This document shows, piece by piece, positions 9,757 through 54,880 of a DNA stretch of 64,000 nt (its first letter is position 1; every line of letters begins with the position of its first letter). The DNA comes from Nanobdellota archaeon (GTDB lineage: Archaea; Nanobdellota; Nanobdellia; CSSed11-243R1): NCBI GenBank assembly GCA_021162365.1, contig JAGGYW010000020.1, positions 9,154 to 73,153 of the forward strand, given 5' to 3'. The notes under the pieces are model-generated. The model had not been told where the DNA came from. It saw only the letters and a list, made by a program, of their open reading frames with translations, and made no database searches. A program made the translations under genes and the position numbers.

Positions 9757-12216
9757 TCAACCACCAAAAAATCCTCCAAGTTTTGTTTGGCGCTTCCCAA
9801 GCAGTTCGTCTTTACTTACACCTATAACTTCAAAAATTCTTTCTACTGCTGGTAACACTTGATTGTTTATATAATACTCGGGGTCATATTCTAACTTTCT
9901 CTCCAAAACTTCTTCTAATATAAATGCTTTGTCGGATATACTACCACTACCTTTAACAATTACATATTTAATTATTTGCCCTGGCTCAAATGTGTATCCT
10001 TTTTCTCTTGCTTTAATTGCTGCAGAAACATGCGGACCTATTGATTCATAATCCTCTATTCTTCTCGTCAACTGTGTGTAGATGGTTACTTCCTCGACTG
10101 GCATGTCTCCTGCTTTTAGCTTCTTAATTGTGTCAAGAACTATGTTGATTGCTTCTTCTTTTGAGCCATCTATCAGAATTGCTCTTAACACTTTCATCTG
10201 GGTGTCTTTTGCAATTTTTGACCAATCTCTTCTTACCCACTCTAACCCTTTTATGGTTAAGTTTCCTAAAGTGTCTGCTAATGCGTATCTTTTTTTTGCT
10301 ATGAAAATGCCCCTTGAGTAAAATCCTTGGAAGTCAAGTTCCATCATTTCTGGGAGGGATGAATTAACCTCTTCTATGAACTTTTCAGCTTCCTCCAAGC
10401 TTTTGTTTTCTAGAGATATAAAAAGCGAATCTGTGTCTGCATACAACACTTTGAACTCTCTTTTTTCAGCTTCATCAATTACTTTTTTGATATAATGTCT
10501 TCCAAGAGCAGTTATGCTTGCGGCACACTCCCAGCAATACCATCTGCTTCGGGCAAACCCAAGATACCCATACATTGCATTTGCAATTGTTTTAATGGCA
10601 TAACTTCTTGCAGATAATATTGTATAATCCTCATCTTCTTTAGTTAGAGTTTTTAAGATTTCTTTAATTCTCACTCTTCTGTTTATTAAATCTTCTAGCA
10701 GCTGTGGGATGAACCCCTTATGTTTCTTGCAGAAGGAATATTTTTTTCCCTCTATCTCTGGGGTGGTATACCCTTCTTTGCAACAATCACAGAAAAGTGT
10801 TGTAGGGCAAATGTTGTACGATACAATTATGCTTGGATAAAGCGAACGAAAGTCATAAACTACCACGTTTTCATAAAGTCCAAGTGCAGGGGAGTGAACA
10901 TATGCACCCTCATACGATCTGCTTAATCTATTTGTTACAAAACTGCCAACCGGTTTTGGTGGGATTAGCTCCTTGAATTCATGTGCATTTTTTGCCAAAA
11001 ACCATTCTACACACTGTCCATAAGTCATTCTGCTGACATCAAACGGGGTCTGCCCAACAATTTTTGTGAGCTCTACTATTAATGCAAATAATTTTTCCAT
11101 GAGCTTAAGTGTTATCTCTGCATCCTTCATAGAATACTCAATCATTTTCTTTAGGTCTTCTCCACCACTATCCCACATTTTAGATATTTCAGTCCAGTGG
11201 AACCCATCCACCTTTGTTTCACCGATTAGCTCGTCTGCGACGGAATTCAAGTCGTAAGTTTCCGTTTTTAATGTTGGACCGAGTATGTTTTTAATAAACA
11301 AGTACAAATCAATATGAGGTATTCCAATAATCTTGGCGGAATGTCCTATGCCTCGTCTGTTAATTTTTAGCTTTGAATTATCTACTCCAAGTGTTAGGTC
11401 AATTTTGTATTTCTTTGCCCTCTCGTTTATATAAGGGAAGTCAAAATTGTCGCTGTTATATCCAACAATTATGTGTGGTTTTTCTTTTTCTATAGTTTCC
11501 ATGAACTTGATTAATACATCCATCTCTGATTCGACGATCTCCGCGTATTCTGAGTTACACCTTTTCCAAGTTATCACTTTATTTGTCCCATAATTTGTGG
11601 CTATCGAAATCATGAGAATGGGGTCTTTACTCGGTCGCGGATTCCCAATCGGATTATATGTCTCTATGTCCACCGCCATTATCTTTACATTCTCCATGAA
11701 CTCACTACTTGTTTCTTCAATATCCTCCGCTTCTAAGATATAATCCGCCTTATACTTTTTTGAGTCAATTCGTTCCCCCTCGCATCTGACCCTTGTAAAC
11801 ATTTTGAATTTCTTATCCATCAAATATCTTTTTTTGATTCCTATGTCTGTTTCCACTACCTCACTGACACCTGGCAGAGTTTTGATTACATCTTTAATGT
11901 GCCGTATGTCAGAGAATTTTTCCACCCACACTTTTAAAGAATTCACTTTTCTTCCAATTAAGTTTAATTCGTACTCCTCAACTTTTATTGGTTTTATCTT
12001 TTCTTCTCCATTGCTTAATTCAAGTTCCTTTAAGATGTTAATTACTTCTTCTTTTTTGTCTTTATCTACTATAACAAAAAAATACGGCCTAAAAGATTTA
12101 TCTACAACAATTACTCTCTCTCCACCTTTTGTATATCCAAATATCACTATTGCTTCGTCCTTTTCGTCGTAATCTACATCAAATGGATAAAATTCAATTA
12201 TTGTTTTCCCCATCAA
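9757..12216 (-). CDS. polB: Family B DNA polymerase (PolB); no intein apparent
   Basis: Exonuclease motifs (VDIETYN), polymerase motif A (DFRSLYPSII) and motif C (YADTDSLF). 819 aa, a normal length for an intein-free archaeal PolB. Confidence 0.9.
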   Translation of the reverse strand: MMGKTIIEFYPFDVDYDEKDEAIVIFGYTKGGERVIVVDKSFRPYFFVIVDKDKKEEVINILKELELSNGEEKIKPIKVEEYELNLIGRKVNSLKVWVEKFSDIRHIKDVIKTLPGVSEVVETDIGIKKRYLMDKKFKMFTRVRCEGERIDSKKYKADYILEAEDIEETSSEFMENVKIMAVDIETYNPIGNPRPSKDPILMISIATNYGTNKVITWKRCNSEYAEIVESEMDVLIKFMETIEKEKPHIIVGYNSDNFDFPYINERAKKYKIDLTLGVDNSKLKINRRGIGHSAKIIGIPHIDLYLFIKNILGPTLKTETYDLNSVADELIGETKVDGFHWTEISKMWDSGGEDLKKMIEYSMKDAEITLKLMEKLFALIVELTKIVGQTPFDVSRMTYGQCVEWFLAKNAHEFKELIPPKPVGSFVTNRLSRSYEGAYVHSPALGLYENVVVYDFRSLYPSIIVSYNICPTTLFCDCCKEGYTTPEIEGKKYSFCKKHKGFIPQLLEDLINRRVRIKEILKTLTKEDEDYTILSARSYAIKTIANAMYGYLGFARSRWYCWECAASITALGRHYIKKVIDEAEKREFKVLYADTDSLFISLENKSLEEAEKFIEEVNSSLPEMMELDFQGFYSRGIFIAKKRYALADTLGNLTIKGLEWVRRDWSKIAKDTQMKVLRAILIDGSKEEAINIVLDTIKKLKAGDMPVEEVTIYTQLTRRIEDYESIGPHVSAAIKAREKGYTFEPGQIIKYVIVKGSGSISDKAFILEEVLERKLEYDPEYYINNQVLPAVERIFEVIGVSKDELLGKRQTKLGGFFGG

Positions 12217-42583: not shown

Positions 42584-43205
42584 AACCATATTTGCCAATT
42601 AACGGCACGAACACAAACGGACCCAAATCAATCTTTTCTATATTTTTCTTTTTAATGATGAGCATCAACCTTTGTAAGTGTTCTTTTTCTCCAACTGGGA
42701 TGACCATCCTCCCCCCAAATGAGAGTTGGTCTACTAAAACTTCTGGGATTTTTGGTGCACATGCGGTAACAATAATACAATCAAACGGTGCTTTTTCTTT
42801 TAGTCCTTCACTACCATCGCCGTGTATAACTTCCACATTTTTGTAATTCCTTAAATTCTTCTTTGCAAATTCAACAAGCTCCTTTATTCGCTCAATAGTG
42901 TATACTTTGCCCGGCTTTACTATCTCTGCTAATATTGCAGCTTGATAACCGCTACCTGTTCCTATCTCTAAAACTTTATCTCCTTTATGTGGCTGTAGTG
43001 CTTCAGTCATGATTGCTACGGTTGTTGGTTGTGAAATTGTTTGTCCTGCAAGAATTGGAAGCGGCTGGTCAACATACGCTAACTTTTTGTATTCATTGAC
43101 ACAAAAATCCTTCCTATCTACTTTTAAGAATGCTGAGATTATTTCTTTTGTCTTCAAACTACCATTGCTTACCAAATGATTTACAAGCTCTTCGTTTGAA
43201 TTCAT
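42573..43205 (-). CDS. pcm: Protein-L-isoaspartate O-methyltransferase
   Basis: SAM motif LEIGTGSGYQAAILAEIV and the PIMT-typical N-terminal QTISQP and C-terminal regions. Confidence 0.85.
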   Translation of the reverse strand: MNSNEELVNHLVSNGSLKTKEIISAFLKVDRKDFCVNEYKKLAYVDQPLPILAGQTISQPTTVAIMTEALQPHKGDKVLEIGTGSGYQAAILAEIVKPGKVYTIERIKELVEFAKKNLRNYKNVEVIHGDGSEGLKEKAPFDCIIVTACAPKIPEVLVDQLSFGGRMVIPVGEKEHLQRLMLIIKKKNIEKIDLGPFVFVPLIGKYGFKE

Positions 43206-44137
43206 CTTAACATACCTCTTATAATTACATCCGTGGCTTCTCCTTCAGTAAGTCCTTTTGACATAAGTGATTCAAGCTGTTTCCTATTTACCTTACCTAA
43301 AGAAGCTTCATGGGTTACTCTAGCGTTCTTGTTATATACCTCAACGATAGGGATTGCTGAGATTTTCCCGTTTCCTTCAATTATTTCAGTGCAATCAACA
43401 TGCCCAACACTTCCATCCCCTATACCTTTCATCACGCTCTTAACAATACATGAGGAATTTTCTGCTGTAGCAACTCTGCTCTTAAGAAGCCCGTGGGAAT
43501 TCCTCCCAGCTAGCTCCATATACTCTATGATAGAAATTATATCTTTCTTCTTGCCAAAAGCTTTTGTGCACACATCCCCACGTGCATTGTCCAACAATAT
43601 AATTTTATAATTCAACTCTAGCCTGCCCAACACCCCTTCCTTTGAAGCAAAAATAGATTTATATGACGCCCTATCTCCTGCCTCAATTTCAACATCTGCT
43701 TTTACGTGTGCACCGTGTTTTCCATGAAAATGCTCTTCTTCATAAATTAACTTTGAGTTTTTACCAATTTCGAACTTGCCTTTCATGAAGTGCTTAACAT
43801 CTTTTGAGTTTGGGAAGAAACAATGCGACAAAATTTTCATTTCCGAATTGGACTCCATTTTCAAATTAACAATTATCCTTTGCGCCCATTCTTTTTTTAT
43901 CACACCCATACACATATGAACAGGAATTTTTAATTTTACATTTCTCTTTAGAATTAAATCAATATAAATTGAACTTCCCCTTTTTCTCGTGTTTATAATT
44001 AATCCTTCTATATCTTTTTTATCCAAAACTTTGCTCTCATTAATTATCACTCTCGGACTAGATAGCAAATCTTCTGAAACAAAACCACTTTTCTCATACT
44101 CTTCTATAAACTTTTTGAATTCTTCTTCGAAATTCAT
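43202..44137 (-). CDS. SufB/SufD-family Fe-S cluster assembly protein (short archaeal SufBD)
   Basis: Beta-helix core and conserved C-terminal segment (KGLTEGEATDVIIRGML). Operon with sufC (4-nt overlap). Confidence 0.7.
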   Translation of the reverse strand: MNFEEEFKKFIEEYEKSGFVSEDLLSSPRVIINESKVLDKKDIEGLIINTRKRGSSIYIDLILKRNVKLKIPVHMCMGVIKKEWAQRIIVNLKMESNSEMKILSHCFFPNSKDVKHFMKGKFEIGKNSKLIYEEEHFHGKHGAHVKADVEIEAGDRASYKSIFASKEGVLGRLELNYKIILLDNARGDVCTKAFGKKKDIISIIEYMELAGRNSHGLLKSRVATAENSSCIVKSVMKGIGDGSVGHVDCTEIIEGNGKISAIPIVEVYNKNARVTHEASLGKVNRKQLESLMSKGLTEGEATDVIIRGMLR

Positions 44138-44808
44138 TTTAATCCCTTAAAGAGTTTGTTAATTTCCTTAGGTGCCCCACTTGCTACAATTTTACCATTA
44201 ACCATTAAGTGAGCTTTATCTGCAATTGAAGTCATACTTTCTTTATGGGTGATTAATAAAATAGTGCTCCCATTCTTATTCATCTCAAGAATAATTTTTT
44301 TTATTCTATTTATAGAAACCATGTCAATTCCAGAATCAGGCTCATCTAAGATAATTAACTCTGGATTCGCTGCAAGAAGAGATGCTAATTCCACCCTTTT
44401 CCTTTCTCCACCACTTAAACTATCATCTAAAAACCTCTCCGAATATTTAGCAGGAAGCCCAACTTTTTCCAGTATTTTTCTAATTTCTTCAATTGATTTT
44501 GCGCTATCTATTTTAATATATTCTCTAATTTTTATACCCTCAAAAGATGGGGGGCTTTGTTGCATAAATCGTATACCTTGCTTAGCTCTTTTAGTTATAG
44601 AAAGGTTAGATATTTCCCTCTCTTTAAATAAAATTTTTCCATTTGCTTTTTCTATACCCATAATTGCTCTTGCAAGGGTTGATTTGCCTGCCCCATTTGC
44701 ACCAAGAACAGCATGTATTTCTCCTTTATTTATCGAAAAAGAAATGTTTCTAAGGATGCTTCTTCCTTCCTTTTCCAAAGAGACATCTACTAACCTTAGG
44801 ATGTGCAT
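44134..44808 (-). CDS. sufC: SufC Fe-S cluster assembly ABC ATPase
   Basis: Walker A GANGAGKSTL, ABC signature LSGGE, Walker B ILDEPDSGID, and H-loop. Confidence 0.85.
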   Translation of the reverse strand: MHILRLVDVSLEKEGRSILRNISFSINKGEIHAVLGANGAGKSTLARAIMGIEKANGKILFKEREISNLSITKRAKQGIRFMQQSPPSFEGIKIREYIKIDSAKSIEEIRKILEKVGLPAKYSERFLDDSLSGGERKRVELASLLAANPELIILDEPDSGIDMVSINRIKKIILEMNKNGSTILLITHKESMTSIADKAHLMVNGKIVASGAPKEINKLFKGLK

Positions 44809-44881: not shown

Positions 44882-45934
44882 ATGTGTCTACCAAAAATTA
44901 GGGGTGTTAAGGGTAGGAAGATTGCAGTAGCCATGAGTGGGGGGGTTGATAGTTCTGTTACTGCCTTTTTACTTAAAGAATCTGGAGCAGAAGTTTTTGG
45001 TATAACTATGAAAACAATTCCAGCTACATTTGAAGATGTGAAGCAAGCGAAAATTGTAGCGAAACAACTTGAAATACCTCACTATGTAATTGATTTAAAG
45101 AAAATTTTTGAAAAGGAAGTAATTGATTATTTTGTGAAGGAAAGTTTGAAGGGGAAGAATCCAAACCCATGTGTGCCCTGTAATCAAAAGGTTAAGTTCG
45201 GGGCTCTAGTTAGAGAAGCAAAGAAACTTGGCGCTGAGTTAGTTGCCACAGGACATTATGCACGACTAACAAAAAGAGGAAACAAAGTTACCTTAAGGCG
45301 GCCGGTTGACATTAGAAAGGATCAGTCATATGTTCTTTCTATGCTTCCAAAGAAGGTTTTCTTTGATCTTTTGTTTCCCATAGGAAACTTTACAAAAGAA
45401 GAAGTGAGGAAAATTGCAAAAGAGGATGATATTCATGTTTTTAACAAGCCAGAAAATCAGGATCTCTGTTTTCTTGATAAAGAAAAAGGTGATTTTATTG
45501 AAGAAAGAATTCACAAAAAAGTAGGTGAGGGATATATTGTTGATAAGCGTGGGAATATCTTAGGAAAGCATAAAGGATACATCCACTACACTGTCGGGCA
45601 ACGAAAAGGTTTGGGATTAAATACTCATAAAAAATTATATGTTATAGATATACATCCAAGAAAAAATGAAGTTGTTGTTGGTGAGAGAAAAGATTTATTT
45701 TATGATCACTTTTATGTTAATAGATTAAATTGGGTTTCAATAGAACCTCCAGAGAAACCAATCTTAGCACAAGTGTTGGTAAGAAATAAAACACAGCCAA
45801 AAAGAGTAAGAATAATTCCTGAAGGAAAAAAAGCAAAAGTTGTTCCATTAGAACCGATATGGGCTGTCTCGCCGGGGCAGATAGCTGTTTTTATTAAGAA
45901 AGATGTTGTACTTGGAGGGGGTTGGATAATTTGA
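44882..45934 (+). CDS. mnmA: tRNA-specific 2-thiouridylase MnmA
   Basis: PP-loop AVAMSGGVDSSV, catalytic Cys region CNQKVKFG, C-terminal beta-barrel. The ORF-track N-terminal 211 aa (44249-44881) is antisense to sufC and rejected. An alternative start at ATG 44843 is possible. Confidence 0.85.
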   Translation: MCLPKIRGVKGRKIAVAMSGGVDSSVTAFLLKESGAEVFGITMKTIPATFEDVKQAKIVAKQLEIPHYVIDLKKIFEKEVIDYFVKESLKGKNPNPCVPCNQKVKFGALVREAKKLGAELVATGHYARLTKRGNKVTLRRPVDIRKDQSYVLSMLPKKVFFDLLFPIGNFTKEEVRKIAKEDDIHVFNKPENQDLCFLDKEKGDFIEERIHKKVGEGYIVDKRGNILGKHKGYIHYTVGQRKGLGLNTHKKLYVIDIHPRKNEVVVGERKDLFYDHFYVNRLNWVSIEPPEKPILAQVLVRNKTQPKRVRIIPEGKKAKVVPLEPIWAVSPGQIAVFIKKDVVLGGGWII

Positions 45935-46488
45935 AGTTACCTTCGAGAGAAGAGTGTTTCAAGCTTTTGGAGAAGTATGAATCTTTTCCCCATATTGTTG
46001 AACACAGTAAATTAGTAAATAAAATTGCAGTATATCTGGCTAAAAAACTTAAGGAAAAAGGAGTTAACATAAATGTTGAGTTAGTTGATAGGGCTTCTCT
46101 TCTTCATGACATTGGCAAATCTATTGTTATAAGGATGGACGCTCAAAGGGCAAATACAATTGAGGACAATCACCATATTGTCGGTGAGGAAATTTTAACA
46201 AAGGAAGGCTATCCTGAGCTGGCAAAGATCGTTAGGAAGCACTCCCTTAAAGAAATCCAAAATTTAGAAACGTGGGAAGAAAAGGTTGTTCATTACGCCG
46301 ACTTGAGAGTTAGGCATTCTTCGATTGTAGGTGTGAAAGAAAGGGTTGAAGATATTGTGAGAAGATATAAAGTCCCTCCAGAGAAAAGAATTGATAAAAA
46401 AGTAATTTTTGCTCTTGAAAAAGAGATTTATGGTATAATTGGGGGCTCGCCAGATAAGCTAAAAGAGGAGATTAAAAGTGAACATTAA
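45922..46488 (+). CDS. HD-domain phosphohydrolase
   Basis: H...HD...H...D metal-binding pattern (LLHDIGK, HH, HYAD). Confidence 0.6.
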   Translation: MDNLKLPSREECFKLLEKYESFPHIVEHSKLVNKIAVYLAKKLKEKGVNINVELVDRASLLHDIGKSIVIRMDAQRANTIEDNHHIVGEEILTKEGYPELAKIVRKHSLKEIQNLETWEEKVVHYADLRVRHSSIVGVKERVEDIVRRYKVPPEKRIDKKVIFALEKEIYGIIGGSPDKLKEEIKSEH

Positions 46489-46741
46489 GGTAGCTGCTGA
46501 GCGCGAGATGAAGAGGATGGAAGAAATTTTTAATAACATCAAAATTTCGAATAACAAAAAAGCTGACGAGTTTTATTCCTTTGCTGAGAATTATTTCATG
46601 GATGGAAAATATTTTTTTGGGAAGAAGAAATACATAGAATCATTTGAAGCGTTTATAATTTCATGGGCATACTTGGATATTGGACTAAAACTAAAGTTAT
46701 TTAAAGTTGATAAATCTGTTAAGAAATATTTTACTTCTTAA
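46478..46741 (+). CDS. Hypothetical small protein
   Basis: 87-aa ORF overlapping the HD gene stop (likely co-transcribed); no family recognised. Confidence 0.3.
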   Translation: MNIKVAAEREMKRMEEIFNNIKISNNKKADEFYSFAENYFMDGKYFFGKKKYIESFEAFIISWAYLDIGLKLKLFKVDKSVKKYFTS

Positions 46742-46987: not shown

Positions 46988-48205
46988 TTAATTCACCATC
47001 TCAGCGATTTCCTTCACAGCATTTACGAATTTTTCTACTTCATTTAAATTATTATACAGATATAAGGATGCTCTTACAGAACCGTTTATTCCGATTTTTT
47101 TGTGCATAGGCATTGTACAATGATGTCCACTTCTCACACAAATGTTATATTTTGAATCAAGAATTGCAGCAACATCATGGCAATCCAGTCCGGAAATGTT
47201 AAAAGAAACGAGACCGCCACGCTTGCTCCACTCTTTTGGACCATAAATTACTACCTCTTCTATTTTTTGTAGCTCCTCAAGGGCATATTTAATCAACTTT
47301 TGTTCATGTGCCCATATCTTTTCCATTCCAATTTTTGATAGAAAGTCAATTGCAACCCCAAACGCATATCCATCTGCAATGTTTGCAGTCCCAGCCTCGA
47401 ATTTCCATGGAAGTTTGTTTACTTTGTATTGGTTGTAATCCACTTCAGATATCATGTCTCCTCCTCCGAGGAACGGGCTTAATTCTTCAAGTTTCTCTTT
47501 TTTACCATATAAAACACCAATCCCGGTTGGACCACACATTTTGTGGGATGAAAAAGCTAAGAAGTCGCAGCCAATTTTCTTTACATCAATTGGCATGTGG
47601 GGTACTGACTGCGCGCCATCCACAATAAATGTTATACCCTTTTCTTTTGCTATCCTTCCAATTTCTTTGACTGGATTTATTGTTCCTAAAAAATTGGATA
47701 TGTGTACTGTGCTAATCACTTTCGTCTTTTTAGTAAGCATTTCATTTAAATTATCAATGTTAATCTCTCCATTTTCATTGACTTTTAAGTACTTCAATAT
47801 CACACCCTTGTCTTTCAGCATCATCCATGGAACAAGATTGGAGTGGTGCTCCATTTCTGTTACAATTACTTCATCCCCCTTTGATAAGTTAAGTGATTTT
47901 GCTACTAAGTTAATTGACTCTGTGGTGTTTTTAGTGAACACTATTTCCTCTCTCCCATCTGCATTAATAAATTTGGCAACTTTGTCATGCGCTTCCTCGT
48001 ACATTTCTGATGCTTCTTGCGATAACTTATAAAGCCCTCTGTGGATGTTCGCGTAATGGTTTTCGTAAAAATCTTTAAGTGCATTTATCACAACCCGTGG
48101 TTTTTGCGTAGATGCAGCATTGTCTAAGAAAATTATTGATTTTCCATTTATTTTTCTTTTAAGGAACGGGAAGTTTTCCCTTATCTTCTCATTCAAGCAT
48201 TTCAC
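46988..48205 (-). CDS. sufS: Cysteine desulfurase (class V aminotransferase, SufS/Csd type)
   Basis: PLP-lysine motif SSHKMCGPTGIGVLYG and conserved HHSN, TGxxxD regions. Confidence 0.85.
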   Translation of the reverse strand: MKCLNEKIRENFPFLKRKINGKSIIFLDNAASTQKPRVVINALKDFYENHYANIHRGLYKLSQEASEMYEEAHDKVAKFINADGREEIVFTKNTTESINLVAKSLNLSKGDEVIVTEMEHHSNLVPWMMLKDKGVILKYLKVNENGEINIDNLNEMLTKKTKVISTVHISNFLGTINPVKEIGRIAKEKGITFIVDGAQSVPHMPIDVKKIGCDFLAFSSHKMCGPTGIGVLYGKKEKLEELSPFLGGGDMISEVDYNQYKVNKLPWKFEAGTANIADGYAFGVAIDFLSKIGMEKIWAHEQKLIKYALEELQKIEEVVIYGPKEWSKRGGLVSFNISGLDCHDVAAILDSKYNICVRSGHHCTMPMHKKIGINGSVRASLYLYNNLNEVEKFVNAVKEIAEMVN

Positions 48206-48580: not shown

Positions 48581-48946
48581 TTATCTTACTATGACTTTTC
48601 CTGTCATTTCTGGATTAAACTCAGATGAGTAAATATACACCCCACTTTCATCAAATACGTGTTCATATCTCTCGTTTGGAAGTAATATTGGACTTTTGAA
48701 ATCCGCGCCGACAACCCTTTGCCTAGTTTCACATTTATTTACCCATACTATTTTATCGCCTGCATTAATTGTGATTTCTTCTGGAGTGAATCCCTCGTCT
48801 TCTATGAGAATGGTGTTGGTTCCACCATACTTCTCAGGCTCATTAAATATTCTTACTCTTTCTTCGGGGTATACCATTATTAGATATACTATAAACAATG
48901 CAATTAGAGCTGCAATTATTATTGAAGCTATTGGTGTTTTTCCCAT
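48581..48946 (-). CDS. Membrane-anchored cupredoxin-like small protein lacking canonical Cu ligands
   Basis: N-terminal TM anchor. The pattern F.PEEITINAGDKIVWVN....Q....D.......G.Y.Y.S..NPEMTGKVIV resembles plastocyanin-type beta-sandwiches, but His/Cys/His ligands are absent. Confidence 0.3.
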   Translation of the reverse strand: MGKTPIASIIIAALIALFIVYLIMVYPEERVRIFNEPEKYGGTNTILIEDEGFTPEEITINAGDKIVWVNKCETRQRVVGADFKSPILLPNERYEHVFDESGVYIYSSEFNPEMTGKVIVR

Positions 48947-48977: not shown

Positions 48978-49862
48978 CTAATCCAACCCAACTTCTTTCC
49001 AAAGTTTTCTTAACATGCTTGGCATAAAGCCTAATGATGGATAGAATACAGGTAAATCTGTCCTTGCCTCAAATTTACCAACATACTTCTGTGGAACAAC
49101 TATTGCTTTGGCGTTTTCAAGTTTGGCTATGTCTACAGCTCTTCCAATTTTGTCTTTAGCGTTAGAAATATTGTAGTAAGTTAATACATCTTCAGTATAG
49201 TAGTATTTTTTGTCAAAATTTTTTGCCCTCTTTTTGTTCTTTCCTGCATCTGCTATAACTATTTCGCATCCTCTCCTTGCCATTAACCACACATTTATCC
49301 ATGATTCAACGTCGTTTGTTGTGAAACAAAGAACTTTACCTTGGGTGCCAATAGGGAGCCCGCCCCAGCCTTTGTAAAACTCATAAAACACATATGTTTC
49401 TTTCTTATCTACCTCAAAAGAAATATTTATATCATATTTTTCTAGGTCAACTTTTGCACCTGTTTTTTCCACAATGTATGCCCCAACTTCCGAACTAATT
49501 TGCATGGAAGTTAATGGGAATTTTTTAAATCTCCTTCTTGTTGTGATTCTAAACTTTTTCTTTTTGCTCTTTTTGTAAATCTTAAGTGCTGTCTTCTTCA
49601 TTTCCTCCAAGTCAGTTTTTATTATCTGCGCAGGGGAATATGAAACAACTCCAAAAACATTTTTAATTACCTTCAACACTTTTTTCATTTGCTTGCACCA
49701 CACATAGATACGCGCCCCCCTCTGTCTTATTTTTTCAATTTCGATTTTATTTTCAAGCAAGGCACGAGAAAGGTTGTCCATAAGTTTCTTTTCAAATTCT
49801 CTTCTAACCCAATATGATTTTATTCCAATTTCTCCATATCTTACGATAATCACTTTTTCCAT
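48978..49862 (-). CDS. ThiI-like protein (N-terminal ferredoxin-like + THUMP domain) with degenerate PP-loop domain
   Basis: N-terminus MEKVIIVRYGEIGIKSYWVRREFEKKL matches the ThiI start. Where ThiI has GKVLVLLSGGIDSPVA this protein has GKVLCFTTNDVESWIN. Only about 295 aa. Confidence 0.55.
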   Translation of the reverse strand: MEKVIIVRYGEIGIKSYWVRREFEKKLMDNLSRALLENKIEIEKIRQRGARIYVWCKQMKKVLKVIKNVFGVVSYSPAQIIKTDLEEMKKTALKIYKKSKKKKFRITTRRRFKKFPLTSMQISSEVGAYIVEKTGAKVDLEKYDINISFEVDKKETYVFYEFYKGWGGLPIGTQGKVLCFTTNDVESWINVWLMARRGCEIVIADAGKNKKRAKNFDKKYYYTEDVLTYYNISNAKDKIGRAVDIAKLENAKAIVVPQKYVGKFEARTDLPVFYPSLGFMPSMLRKLWKEVGLD

Positions 49863-50059
49863 ATTAGCACCCAATAAAAGATGTTTGCCAAAAGCAGAAT
49901 TGTGAGTATAACAGTAAATATTAAAAAATAATCAATTGCTGCGCCAAAAGAGTACGCTGTATAAAGAAGGGCCCACATAATTACCAGTGAAAGAGCCGAG
50001 GAAAAAACCACAACCTCTCTTTTATTTTTGATATTTCCACTTAAAATTTTTCTTAGCAT
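49850..50059 (-). CDS. Possible small 2-TM membrane protein
   Basis: The C-terminal 55 aa of the ORF are strongly hydrophobic. Start trimmed to an internal Met to avoid overlap with the divergent gene at 50135. Weak support. Confidence 0.2.
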   Translation of the reverse strand: MLRKILSGNIKNKREVVVFSSALSLVIMWALLYTAYSFGAAIDYFLIFTVILTILLLANIFYWVLIWKK

Positions 50060-50134: not shown

Positions 50135-51118
50135 TTGAGCGAAGAAAAACACAAGATAAAAATTTCTAAGCTGCAATTGTTCCAAGTTTTAACAGTTGTT
50201 TTAGCAATAGCACTACTTGCTAGCTTTGCAGTAAAGACAACAGGGTGCATGGTTGCAGATGTTGACACTGTTGGCAAGAACACAGTTGACTTTATTAACA
50301 ATAACTTGCTTCCACCCGGAGTATCAGCAACATACATTAATGGGAGGAGTTCGCATGGGATGTACAATTTGTCTGTTACAATAGGTAATCAAACAGGGAA
50401 CTTATTTGTTAGTGCAGATGGAAAACTTTTGTTCATTAACCCAATTGATATGTCACAAAGTATGAGTAATCCACAACAAGACCAACAACAACAAACGGAA
50501 ATTCCAAAGACAGATAAGCCAGTAGTTAAGTTGTTTGTGATGAGCTATTGTCCATTTGGAACACAAATGGAAAAAGGAATAATTCCAGTGATAAAAACAC
50601 TCGGCGACAAGATTGACTTCCAAGTGGAATTTGTGTACTATGCTATGCACGGAGAGAAAGAAATTAAGGAGAATATGTTACAAGTATGTATACAGAAGGA
50701 GTATAGAGACAAATATATTGACTACTTAGAGTGCTTCCTTGAAGCGGGAGATTCGCAGGGTTGTATAGAAAAGATTGGATTTAACAATGCTACATTAACT
50801 ACATGTATGGACAACTTAGATACAGAATATAACATAACTGCAATGTATAACGACCAGAGCACATGGTTGAGCGGCAGATATCCACTTTTCCCTGTAGACA
50901 AAGCAGACAACGATAAGTATAATGTTGGTGGGTCACCAACATTAGTAATCAATGATGTTGTTGTACAAAGTGGAAGAGATTCGGCAAGTTTGCTAAGTAC
51001 AATTTGTTCAGCATTCACAAATCCACCAGAAGAATGTAATACAGAGTTGTCTTCGACAACACCCTCTCCAGGATTTGGATATGAGGGAAGCGGAACAAAC
51101 AGTGGAAGTTGTGGCTAA
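50135..51118 (+). CDS. Secreted/membrane-anchored DsbA-like thioredoxin-fold protein with single-Cys CPFG motif and Q-rich linker
   Basis: N-terminal TM/signal. DsbA-like pattern KLFVMSYCPFG...VEFVYYAMHG...NVGGSPTLVIND, with CxxC replaced by CPFG. Start assigned to TTG 50135, 6 nt after a GGGGTGA Shine-Dalgarno (ORF track uses GTG 50126). Confidence 0.45.
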   Translation: MSEEKHKIKISKLQLFQVLTVVLAIALLASFAVKTTGCMVADVDTVGKNTVDFINNNLLPPGVSATYINGRSSHGMYNLSVTIGNQTGNLFVSADGKLLFINPIDMSQSMSNPQQDQQQQTEIPKTDKPVVKLFVMSYCPFGTQMEKGIIPVIKTLGDKIDFQVEFVYYAMHGEKEIKENMLQVCIQKEYRDKYIDYLECFLEAGDSQGCIEKIGFNNATLTTCMDNLDTEYNITAMYNDQSTWLSGRYPLFPVDKADNDKYNVGGSPTLVINDVVVQSGRDSASLLSTICSAFTNPPEECNTELSSTTPSPGFGYEGSGTNSGSCG

Positions 51119-51393
51119 AGAAGCTTTTCATAAATTTTTTTTATTATTTCTTTTGCTTTTTCTTCATCTTTAATTTCTTTGACTAGAACTCTACCATCCT
51201 TGAATATATTGATTGTGTATTTGTTTTTCGCAATTATCATGTCCTTTAGGGATAGTTTTATTTCGTATCCTTCCTTTTTGAGAATTTCCTTAGCTTTTGA
51301 CATATCTATCTTTACTAACTTCTTGACAACTCCTTGGAAGGCTGCGCCGGTTGTACAAGGTTTGAATATATAATAGTTACTCTTCATTTTCAA
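51115..51393 (-). CDS. Hypothetical small protein
   Basis: 92-aa K-rich ORF in an operon-like arrangement; no family recognised. Confidence 0.3.
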   Translation of the reverse strand: MKMKSNYYIFKPCTTGAAFQGVVKKLVKIDMSKAKEILKKEGYEIKLSLKDMIIAKNKYTINIFKDGRVLVKEIKDEEKAKEIIKKIYEKLL

Positions 51394-52104: not shown

Positions 52105-52878
52105 TTGAAATTAATAAATCACTATTTGGTTTCAAATGACATGGATTATATCATCTCAGAGCTTGCTGGTGCTATTGTTGGTGACGGACATATTGTTGAC
52201 AATAGAAAATATTCTTTGTATATCTATGGGAATGCGACGGAAGATTTTTGTTATTTGAGATATTTGTCGTCTCATTTTGAAAAGTTATTTGGCATATCTC
52301 CAAGGTTAGGTATAAGAGTATATAAAAATGGGCGTGCCGCGATATTACAAATCCACAATAAAGATGTCGTAAGATTTTTTACTAAAGTGGTTGGGATCCC
52401 CGCTGGAAACAAAATATACTCAGTGAGCATACCAAGTTTTGTAGATGAAAGTAATATCAAGTATTTTGTAAGGGGGTTATTCGACACGGATGGGTGTATA
52501 GTATTTACGAAGTCTAAAACGAATTCTCTATTTCCTACCTATCCGAGAATTGAAATAAAGACATCTAGTGGTAAGTTGAGTTCACAACTAATAGATGTGT
52601 TAAACAATATAGGGTTTAAAGTAAACTTACGAAGAGATGGAACTTCAAACATAATATACGTTAGTGGAAATCTCCAGGTTGATAAGTGGTTTGGGGAAAT
52701 TGGTTCGAGTAATTTAAAAAATCTAGTTAAGTTCCAATTTTGGAGGTGCTTTGGGTATCACTTGCCTGGATTAGACGTAGGATCTAGATTAAAAATATTA
52801 AAGCGGGCGGGGAGAGTCGAACTCCCTTCTACCGGTGACTGCCAATCATTGCTTAAACAGCTCATCTCACCGAGTTAG
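52105..52878 (+). CDS. Free-standing double-motif LAGLIDADG homing endonuclease
   Basis: Two LAGLIDADG motifs about 100 aa apart (ISELAGAIVGDGHI and FVRGLFDTDGCIV), as in single-chain enzymes like I-DmoI. The last ~25 codons run antisense across the tRNA gene and are probably read-through. Confidence 0.7.
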   Translation: MKLINHYLVSNDMDYIISELAGAIVGDGHIVDNRKYSLYIYGNATEDFCYLRYLSSHFEKLFGISPRLGIRVYKNGRAAILQIHNKDVVRFFTKVVGIPAGNKIYSVSIPSFVDESNIKYFVRGLFDTDGCIVFTKSKTNSLFPTYPRIEIKTSSGKLSSQLIDVLNNIGFKVNLRRDGTSNIIYVSGNLQVDKWFGEIGSSNLKNLVKFQFWRCFGYHLPGLDVGSRLKILKRAGRVELPSTGDCQSLLKQLISPS

Positions 52879-53458: not shown

Positions 53459-54880
53459 TTAAATTCTTTTTCTTAACTTTGGACCATCTGGGGTATCCTG
53501 TAACTCCCATCCCATTTCACGAATTTTCTCACGAATTTCATCCGCTTTTCTAAAGTCTTTTTTCTTTCTTGCTTCTTCCCTTTCTTCAACGAGTTTTTTT
53601 ATCTCTTCAGGAACCTCAGCTTTCTCATGTTCTAAAATCCCAAGCACTTTGTCAAACTCAAGCATAACCTCTTTTACCTCTTTAGCATTTTTTTCTCCAA
53701 ATTTGTTATCTGCAATTAATTTATTAATCTCAGACACAAATTCATGAATTGCTGCCATTGCAAGTGGCACATTCAAATCATCATCCATAGCTTCTTCAAA
53801 TTTTTTCTTTGCGTCAGCAATTAGTTCTTTTACTTTCTCATTGTATATCCCTTCATTAATCTCATCAAGTTTTTCCATAAATTCTATCAATCGATTCACT
53901 GTTGTTTCTGCATCTTTCAAACCTTCAAATGTAAAGTTCAGCTGCGAGCGGTAGTGCGCATTCATTAAGAGGTATCTAACTGCCTTTGGTGAATATCCTT
54001 TTGCCAAAACATCACGGAGGGTGTAAAAGTTATTATATCTCTTTGACATCTTCTTTCCTTCTACAAGCACCCACTCATTGTGGAACCAGTATCTAACAAA
54101 CTGCTTTCCGGTTGCTGCCTCGCTTTGTGCAATTTCGTTTTCGTGGTGCGGAAATATTAAATCAACACCCCCAGCATGGATATCTAAAGTTTCTCCAAGG
54201 TATTTCATGCTCATAGCTGAACATTCAATGTGCCAACCTGGGCGCCCGCGAATTGTTTCTTCTTTTCCATCAATGGTAAACTTCACATTCCAGAAAACAT
54301 CTCCATCTTCCGGCGTCCATGCTTTCCAAAGCGCGAAGTCATTAGCTTCTTCTTTCTCATATTCATCTTGTTTTACCCTTGCCCCCACCTTTAACTCGCT
54401 AACTTTTATGCCCGAAAGCTTTCCATATTCTTTGAACTTGGAAACATCATAGTATATTGAGTTATCTTCTCCTTTATAAGCAAAGCCTTTGTCAATTAAG
54501 GTTTGAATTAGTTTTCTCATATCTTCTATGTGTTCAGTTGCTTTTGCATAAACATCTGCGGGCAAAAGATTAAGCTTCTTTGAATCTTCAAAAAATGCTT
54601 TGGTATATCTTTCTGTGAATTCTTTTAGCGAAATCCCTTCTTTTTGACTATCTCTAATGGTTTTGTCATCTACATCTGTTAAGTTCATGACATGCTTTAC
54701 ACTATATCCTTTGTAAAGAAGATACCTTTTGAGTATATCTTGTGCAACATAACTCCTAAAGTTTCCAATATGAGCATAATTGTAAACAGTAGGCCCGCAA
54801 GTATATAATCTCACCAATTTGTCTTCAAGTGGCTTAAATTCTTCCTTTTTTCTTCCAAGAGTGTTAAATAAAACTAACAT
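53459..54880 (-). CDS. cysS: Cysteinyl-tRNA synthetase
   Basis: CGPTVYNYAHIGNFRS (HIGH-type), zinc-binding Cys residues, KMSKR (KMSKS), and anticodon-binding C-terminal domain; 473 aa. Confidence 0.9.
   Translation of the reverse strand: MLVLFNTLGRKKEEFKPLEDKLVRLYTCGPTVYNYAHIGNFRSYVAQDILKRYLLYKGYSVKHVMNLTDVDDKTIRDSQKEGISLKEFTERYTKAFFEDSKKLNLLPADVYAKATEHIEDMRKLIQTLIDKGFAYKGEDNSIYYDVSKFKEYGKLSGIKVSELKVGARVKQDEYEKEEANDFALWKAWTPEDGDVFWNVKFTIDGKEETIRGRPGWHIECSAMSMKYLGETLDIHAGGVDLIFPHHENEIAQSEAATGKQFVRYWFHNEWVLVEGKKMSKRYNNFYTLRDVLAKGYSPKAVRYLLMNAHYRSQLNFTFEGLKDAETTVNRLIEFMEKLDEINEGIYNEKVKELIADAKKKFEEAMDDDLNVPLAMAAIHEFVSEINKLIADNKFGEKNAKEVKEVMLEFDKVLGILEHEKAEVPEEIKKLVEEREEARKKKDFRKADEIREKIREMGWELQDTPDGPKLRKRI

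Follow-up and report, generated by a model that had tools for sequence, protein, structure and literature searches.

A ThiI-like gene without a PP-loop

The gene described here lies in a 64,000-nucleotide stretch of a Nanobdellota archaeon genome (GenBank assembly GCA_021162365.1, contig JAGGYW010000020.1, positions 9,154 to 73,153), hereafter the window. Its product shares the N-terminal domains of ThiI and has lost the catalytic motifs of that enzyme, and it is a further member of the PH1313-type ThiI-like proteins, a known but functionally unexplained group named here after its one studied member, Pyrococcus horikoshii PH1313, which was reportedly crystallised in 2005. The gene and its parts are as follows.

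48978..49862, minus strand: PH1313-type ThiI-like open reading frame (ORF), 294 amino acids, ATG start at 49862, stop codon at 48978-48980
49635..49853, minus strand: ferredoxin-like domain at the N-terminus (NFLD), residues 4-76 (Pfam PF22025, ThiI_fer, E 1.8e-15; alignment to 4KR6)
49386..49616, minus strand: THUMP domain, residues 83-159 (Pfam PF02926, E 2.9e-16), with the groove that binds the tRNA 3'-CCA end
49347..49364, minus strand: GGLPIG motif of the linker that joins the THUMP domain to the Rossmann-like one, residues 167-172; G168 and P170 invariant
49302..49319, minus strand: TNDVES, residues 182-187, at the position of the SGGxDS PP-loop (from alignments and translation)
48981..49346, minus strand: shortened Rossmann-like domain, residues 173-294, without PP-loop, CxxC, GQVASQT or third Cys; four strands with helices in the structural model

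A TTG start four codons upstream would carry the gene to 49874 and the protein to 298 amino acids, an extension not common to the homologues, which begin MEKVI. NCBI entry MCD6576210.1 (J7K73_03560, 'hypothetical protein', from a Nanoarchaeota archaeon metagenome-assembled genome, MAG) is identical to the window protein. Only 31 nucleotides separate the stop codon from the ATG of the next gene, so that no remnant of the lost C-terminus lies downstream; a frameshifted or truncated pseudogene is ruled out by this gap together with the existence of orthologues of the same length.

The ThiI model TIGR00342 gives 165.6 bits, short of its cutoff of 264.5, and is matched at positions 1-204 only out of 373; the model of the ThiI PP-loop domain, PF02568, covers residues 172-231 only, at 19.6 bits, below its cutoff of 20.5. 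In a phmmer alignment, LLSGGIDSPVAAYL of the window protein pairs with CFTTNDVESWINVW of Bacillus anthracis ThiI (2C5S) at the PP-loop, and when the protein is aligned to a catalytic-domain profile with hmmalign, T182-N-D-V-E-S187 falls on S-G-G-I-D-S; the family has the consensus [ESD]-[DN]-x-x-S at this site, which falls short of the PP-loop by one residue. The insert with CxxC and the GDS/GES-x-GQVASQT motif are gone as well, and so are the third cluster Cys and ~90 amino acids at the C-terminus. The only cysteines of the window protein are C57, C179 and C199, none of which aligns with the CxxC or the third Cys, because the regions carrying these residues are deleted.

An earlier note on this DNA, made from the sequence alone, had described a bona fide ThiI NFLD and THUMP domain, followed by a domain in which SGGxDS is replaced, in a protein shorter than ThiI and probably unable to adenylate uridine 8 (U8) of tRNA. 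The PF22025 and PF02926 matches bear out the first point and the placement of TNDVES in both alignments the second; the last ~90 amino acids are missing, and further catalytic motifs are lost besides. As the PP-loop is absent, ATP binding and U8 adenylation would not be expected; more broadly, judging from its sequence, the protein cannot be expected to adenylate or thiolate uridine alone, because the PP-loop, the iron-sulfur (Fe-S)/persulfide cysteines, the substrate-binding motif and the C-terminal subdomain are all lost. The note's derivation of the protein from ThiI also holds, as other THUMP families (Tan1, Trm11/14) are ruled out by scores and fold: TIGR01177 (Trm11/Trm14/TrmN) scores 17.4 bits against a cutoff of 316.5, in the THUMP region only, and Foldseek aligns Trm11, Trm14 and TrmN via THUMP only (TM-score ~0.4, root-mean-square deviation >10 Å), as against a TM-score of 0.8 to ThiI and 1VBK.

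Fold, family and descent

An AlphaFold model made with 23 homologues (mean predicted local distance difference test score, pLDDT, 93.7; predicted TM-score 0.87) comprises the NFLD, the THUMP domain and a four-stranded Rossmann-like domain. Its first Foldseek match in the PDB is 1VBK, the structure of P. horikoshii PH1313 (E 5e-30; TM-score 0.82, with the whole chain aligned); next come 2C5S, 4KR7 and 4KR6, all structures of ThiI. 1VBK is also the best PDB match by sequence (phmmer, E 1.3e-46 over residues 4-214), and it shows an equivalent loss of the PP-loop (GIL-HDELS).

The protein belongs to a large, conserved family of PP-loop-less proteins of ~265-335 amino acids, referred to below as short forms. 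Searched with a profile, 1.84 billion cluster representatives yielded 6181 matches; among the 150 best representatives, 130 are no longer than 335 amino acids and lack S[GDSA]GxDS, and the family forms more than 130 clusters at 50% identity. In 154 members E11, K15, G71, G168, P170, R197, G198 and P275 are invariant, R8, Y9, R20, R51, F104, R110, S119, G127 and V138 are at least 90% conserved, and C199 is conserved in 85%.

These data bear on the suggestion, also made in the earlier note, of a decaying pseudo-enzyme. A functionless relic of thiI would fit the loss of all catalytic motifs, but the ORF is intact, orthologues at 41-70% identity are equal in length and carry the same deletions, and the architecture is kept in more than 150 diverse sequences, in numerous clusters, with invariant residues in both halves. 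Synteny is conserved as well, and the same architecture occurs separately in Thermococcales, so that we find decay scarcely credible. Neighbour-joining trees place the short forms of Pyrococcus and Palaeococcus with the full-length ThiI of Thermococcales, including that of Thermococcus, at 100% bootstrap (deep nodes are not settled), and the short forms of DPANN archaea and Thermoplasmatales stand apart from them. Because of this grouping, several lineages appear to have gained or retained the short architecture, and the short forms of DPANN archaea and PH1313 are probably separate offshoots and not orthologues.

The residual Rossmann-like domain might alternatively have been remodelled to bind another ligand, making the protein a cryptic enzyme with a different reaction on tRNA position 8 or 9. 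The domain is well folded (pLDDT >90) and conserved in length, and the frequency of C199 would suit such a role; however, only R197, G198, P275 and the hydrophobic core are conserved, with no new polar motif, and the RG(C) motif occurs in ordinary ThiI too. The P. furiosus short form (P0067) has zero cysteines, and Foldseek against the PDB gave no fold match besides ThiI/PP-loop ATPases. A new catalytic activity is, in our estimation, very improbable.

The tRNA-binding half

ThiI is a homodimer acting in trans, in which the THUMP module of one subunit presents U8 to the catalytic site of the other (PMC4041423). The RNA contacts of Thermotoga maritima ThiI comprise the Arg10-Lys19 loop, Arg21 and Arg46 (PMC4041423), and R8, Y9, E11, G13, K15, R20 and R51 of the window protein match these RNA-contacting loops; among ten residues that contact the ACCA end in the T. 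maritima enzyme, five are identical and three conservatively replaced. Because the conserved N-terminal positions coincide with ThiI RNA contacts, acceptor-end binding is likely to be retained. Over the 154 members the mean frequency of the top residue is 0.49 in the N-terminal half vs 0.38 in the C-terminal half.

Stand-alone ThiI catalytic domains in relatives

In six loci from two lineages (loci are designated by L numbers), a short form adjoins a ~185-200-amino-acid protein that consists of the ThiI catalytic domain alone, with no THUMP domain. The two genes are in tandem in Thermococcales (L031, L032 and L088, the last from Palaeococcus ferrophilus) and divergent in Nanoarchaeia of the window's own phylum (L085, L172 and L170, the last from Ca. 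Tiddalikarchaeum anstoanum); in L170 a cysteine desulfurase gene lies in the same operon as the short form. The stand-alone proteins match PF02568 at 190-199 bits and start directly at MKAVxLLSGGIDSPVA, and their PP-loop (SGGIDS), CxxC, GQVASQT, RPL and third Cys are invariant.

Such domains are widespread. A search with the stand-alone family gave 7126 matches, the top 120 of which are all 180-222 amino acids long, and those that could be named come from Nanoarchaeia, Nanoarchaeota, Woesearchaeota, Altiarchaeales, Hydrothermarchaeota and Thermoplasmata. They are annotated as hypothetical, as QueC (7-cyano-7-deazaguanine synthase) or as 'tRNA sulfurtransferase', and correspond to the NCBIfam family NF006222/PRK08349 ('hypothetical protein'). 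In a Nanoarchaeota MAG (L171), the gene of a stand-alone domain (10001-10612) overlaps the start of cysS (10609-12027), with cysteine desulfurase and thioredoxin-like genes upstream, the same gene set as around the window's short form.

In Thermococcus (L011-L034), I, V or M replaces the third [4Fe-4S] Cys of most 380-amino-acid, THUMP-bearing ThiI proteins, and a ~195-amino-acid stand-alone domain (SSGIDS, CxxC, C) is encoded 0-1.5 kb downstream (e.g. L011, 9980-11143 and 11743-12336); in L031, L032 and L088 the THUMP-bearing protein is the short form. These loci look like a degeneration series, in which most THUMP-bearing ThiI proteins have lost the third Cys and the downstream stand-alone domain keeps all catalytic residues, which suggests that even 'full-length' Thermococcus ThiI may need a separate catalytic subunit.

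A proposed two-component 4-thiouridine synthase

Since the ThiI dimer acts in trans, our preferred proposal, to which we give even chances, is that the window protein is the non-catalytic, tRNA-presenting subunit of a two-component 4-thiouridine (s4U) synthase. The short form keeps the NFLD/THUMP module with which ThiI grips the acceptor stem and 3'-CCA end of tRNA, and also the Rossmann-like core that makes up the ThiI dimer interface; it would represent a tRNA-binding head on a dead body, and the stand-alone domain a live body without a head. A heterodimer of the two would put U8 of the tRNA held by the short form into the active site of the stand-alone domain. The partner would be a catalytic PP-loop subunit of ThiI type, most likely the ~190-amino-acid 'headless' domain that is widespread in DPANN archaea, and the cysteine desulfurase from the short form's own gene string would supply the sulfur. 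The 'tRNA-binding adaptor' that the earlier note had offered as one possibility is the reading best supported by the family-wide conservation and the gene context, and the enzyme most likely recruited is the stand-alone ThiI catalytic domain, not MnmA. We infer that the window protein binds tRNA, that it heterodimerises, that the product is s4U8 and that a catalytic partner is encoded in the window's own genome.

Somewhat more tentatively, with chances a little short of even, the scheme may extend to PH1313-type short proteins as a whole, which would then be the dead subunits of an undescribed two-component synthase whose catalytic subunit is the ~190-amino-acid, [4Fe-4S]-type headless domain; the split form would be the usual one among DPANN archaea, as also in part of the Thermococcales and Thermoplasmatota, and would make use of the in-trans geometry of the ThiI dimer. 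A search of the accessible literature on PH1313/1VBK, split ThiI and DPANN ThiI found no function for the family and no description of a split ThiI, and did not turn up the split-enzyme reading.

Several observations weigh against the proposal. No stand-alone ThiI domain or intact thiI was found in the six frames of the window, where the catalytic-domain profile matched only the ThiI-like ORF itself and MnmA, and an NcsA/TtuA-like profile matched MnmA only. The same holds, within 10 kb to each side of the gene, for eight relatives from the clade (L002, L003, L005-L008, L010 and L089), which carry no stand-alone domain or intact thiI there and have MnmA as their only PP-loop enzyme. Among the best 80 of 300 matches in GTDB representatives, no second ThiI-type locus appeared in six close-clade MAGs, which carries little weight, as the search pattern is blind to stand-alone domains. 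Adjacency of short form and stand-alone domain is confined to two lineages and absent from most short-form and long-flank stand-alone loci. A metagenome scan with the stand-alone family added no case of adjacency; most of what it gave were full-length ThiI of bacteria and short contigs.

The situation in Pyrococcus counts on the same side. The tRNA of P. furiosus contains s4U (PMC7668247), and the active enzyme is PF1288, a [4Fe-4S] TtuI with CxxC+C (PMC9825150); the P. furiosus short form (L004) thus exists alongside a separate, active, full-length protein and has no adjoining stand-alone domain. As short form and full-length TtuI coexist here, the catalytic partner may differ between lineages. 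A 2023 review notes several ThiI homologues in Pyrococcus and describes PH1313 as a 'ThiI-like protein' that lacks conserved residues and whose activity is unconfirmed (PMC9957541).

Gene neighbourhood

The ThiI-like gene is the second of a string of genes on the minus strand, and further genes of sulfur metabolism and tRNA modification lie near it.

49850..50059, minus strand: small ORF of 69 amino acids with two transmembrane segments, at the head of the same-strand string; overlap with the ThiI-like gene at the start of the latter
48581..48946, minus strand: membrane-anchored cupredoxin-like protein, 31 nucleotides downstream of the ThiI-like gene; position kept in relatives down to 43% identity
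48189..48578, minus strand: PhageMetallopep/SprT-like small metallopeptidase-like protein, same string, 2 nucleotides after the cupredoxin-like gene
46988..48205, minus strand: SufS-family cysteine desulfurase (TIGR01979), last in the string; 17-nucleotide overlap with the metallopeptidase-like gene
46478..46741, plus strand: DUF357 (PF04010) protein, found again in several lineages close to genes of short ThiI-like proteins or thiolases
44903..45934, plus strand: bacterial-type MnmA (tRNA 2-thiouridine-34 synthase, CxxC type; NF001138)
44134..44808, minus strand: SufC, of a minimal Fe-S assembly pair
43202..44137, minus strand: single SufB/D-like protein, partner of SufC; weak matches to SmsB, SufD and SufB
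53459..54880, minus strand: cysteinyl-tRNA synthetase (CysS), syntenic with the ThiI-like gene throughout the clade

Genes for an HD protein, a thioredoxin/GILT-like protein and a cysteine-synthase-like PALP enzyme are also near, and the surroundings of the ThiI-like gene are a cysteine and tRNA-thiolation island. SufS (TIGR01979, 553 bits, cutoff 475) and MnmA (NF001138, 378 bits, cutoff 284) both score above their cutoffs, so that two of the neighbours named in the earlier note are confirmed; its 'SufBCD' is in reality SufC with one SufB/D-like protein. The window has no PP-loop enzyme besides MnmA. The gene string and the nearby genes are kept in relatives down to 43-45% identity (L001-L003, L005-L010 and L089), and distant short forms adjoin IscS/NifS-type desulfurases (L038, L056, L080 and L170).

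The short form might instead be a tRNA-targeting or scaffold subunit for another thiolase (MnmA in the window's clade, NcsA/TtuA-like enzymes in Woesearchaeota-type relatives) or a dock for the desulfurase, with 2-thiouridine (s2U) or another thio-modification, not s4U8, as the product. Precedents exist, as the dead paralogue Ncs2/Ctu2 partners Ncs6/Ctu1 and the THUMP-only Tan1 partners Kre33. Synteny of MnmA extends over the whole of the window's clade, NcsA/TtuA-like PP-loop enzymes (PF01171 with a zinc ribbon) are encoded close to several short forms, and L080 contains an overlapping string of IscS, IscU, short form and NcsA-like genes, in that order. A separate PP-loop thiolase is found in 13 of 24 short-form loci vs 4 of 59 loci of full-length ThiI (Fisher p = 6e-6, from only ~2-3 independent clades). 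However, full-length ThiI also sometimes adjoins ATP_bind_3 genes (four Thermoplasmatota loci), and the clustering with thiolases may for this reason reflect co-regulation and not partnership. MnmA, moreover, has tRNA-binding domains of its own (a PRC-barrel and a C-terminal barrel were found) and acts on U34, far from the acceptor end from which THUMP measures, and the residual domain of the short form has its homologue in the dimerisation domain of ThiI and not in NcsA or MnmA. Service to a different thiolase is in our view unlikely.

A free-standing tRNA-binding protein without catalytic partner (a chaperone, a sensor of the CCA end, or a competitor or regulator of acceptor-stem modification) would agree with the RNA-binding module being the better conserved half (0.49 vs 0.38), with the lack of a catalytic partner in the window, and with the short-form loci L050, L077, L086 and L087, which have no sulfur-related neighbours. 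Yet the residual Rossmann-like domain is never lost and R197, G198 and P275 are invariant, which argues that this domain has a role of its own; linkage to cysteine desulfurase genes recurs in distant lineages; and stand-alone ThiI domains adjoin the short form in the six loci described above. We therefore rate a solitary role as quite unlikely, and retain the tRNA-presenting subunit of a split synthase as the preferred reading.

Several further features of these loci are recorded here. The window's MnmA has a CVPC (CxxC) motif, and this enzyme is kept throughout the clade; it occurs in a DPANN archaeon, and s2U34 in archaea is normally made by NcsA. DUF357 genes lie within a few kb of short forms and thiolases in L004 (9318-9614), L035 (12041-12343), L085 (6010-6294), L089 (9728-10003), L170 (2045-2326) and L172 (6603-6893), a recurrence that spans DPANN lineages and P. 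furiosus and places DUF357 beside MnmA, an NcsA-like enzyme or a stand-alone ThiI domain; DUF357 may belong to the thiolation island as one more component, or the recurrence may be chance synteny in small genomes. Small transmembrane ORFs occupy the same upstream position in L002, L003, L085 and L172, and a comparison of these ORFs across lineages gave no clear homology. A 92-amino-acid ORF at 51115-51393 (minus strand), kept upstream of the ThiI-like gene in the clade, has a weak match to a single TBP domain (E 1.2e-5), and a free-standing LAGLIDADG_3 homing-endonuclease-like ORF of 257 amino acids lies at 52105-52878 (plus strand), between a GNAT gene and cysS. In Woesearchaeota-type loci, NcsA-like or short ThiI-like genes adjoin those of a group of ~185-230-amino-acid proteins that start MFVDIVFPKNNE (L058, 5522-6130; L038, 6064-6720; L063, 12873-13538), MKLDIVMPKDNE (L071, 10779-11333) or MYADIVFPKNNE (L062, 804-1520); the two members scanned (L058 and L071) gave weak RNase P p30 matches, which lends these loci a tRNA-processing flavour.

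Taken by itself, the window holds an ordinary PH1313-type family member in a gene island for cysteine and thiolation. What the relatives add is a concrete two-protein hypothesis for the orphan structure of PH1313. Should the split-enzyme reading be true, it would be of real interest to those who study tRNA modification, as it would add a pseudo-enzyme/enzyme heterodimer, analogous to Ncs2/Ncs6, to tRNA thiolation, explain how s4U is made in reduced DPANN genomes, and put right the labels of thousands of proteins at present annotated as 'ThiI', 'QueC' or 'hypothetical'.

Comparison with known systems

The closest known counterpart of the window protein is PH1313 (1VBK), which has the same NFLD, THUMP domain and shortened Rossmann-like domain without PP-loop or C-terminal subdomain, and a similar length (307 vs 294 amino acids), although the two are only ~31-35% identical. 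At the P. furiosus locus (L004), no desulfurase gene adjoins the short form, whereas the gene string in the window ends with SufS.

With ThiI/TtuI (2C5S, 4KR6/7 and the Methanococcus maripaludis and P. furiosus enzymes), homology extends over residues 1-205 and takes in the NFLD, the THUMP domain, the GGLPxG linker and the first beta-alpha-beta unit of the catalytic domain; the CCA-contacting residues are largely kept, and linkage to a desulfurase gene is found as for many thiI genes. Unlike these enzymes, the window protein lacks SGGxDS, GQVASQT, the C-terminal subdomain and any cysteine of the CxxC+C or Cys344 type.

As a proposed non-catalytic subunit that aids a catalytic partner on tRNA, the protein would be analogous to Ncs2/Ctu2 (with Ncs6/Ctu1) and to Tan1/THUMPD1 (with Kre33/NAT10). 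It is a member of neither family: Ncs2 is a dead PP-loop paralogue and Tan1 has THUMP only, whereas the window protein combines THUMP with a dead catalytic domain. The stand-alone ThiI domains (NF006222/PRK08349), finally, are homologous to its C-terminal half and occur in the same lineages (DPANN, Thermoplasmata and Thermococcales), and they form its complement, with all of the catalytic residues and no NFLD or THUMP domain.

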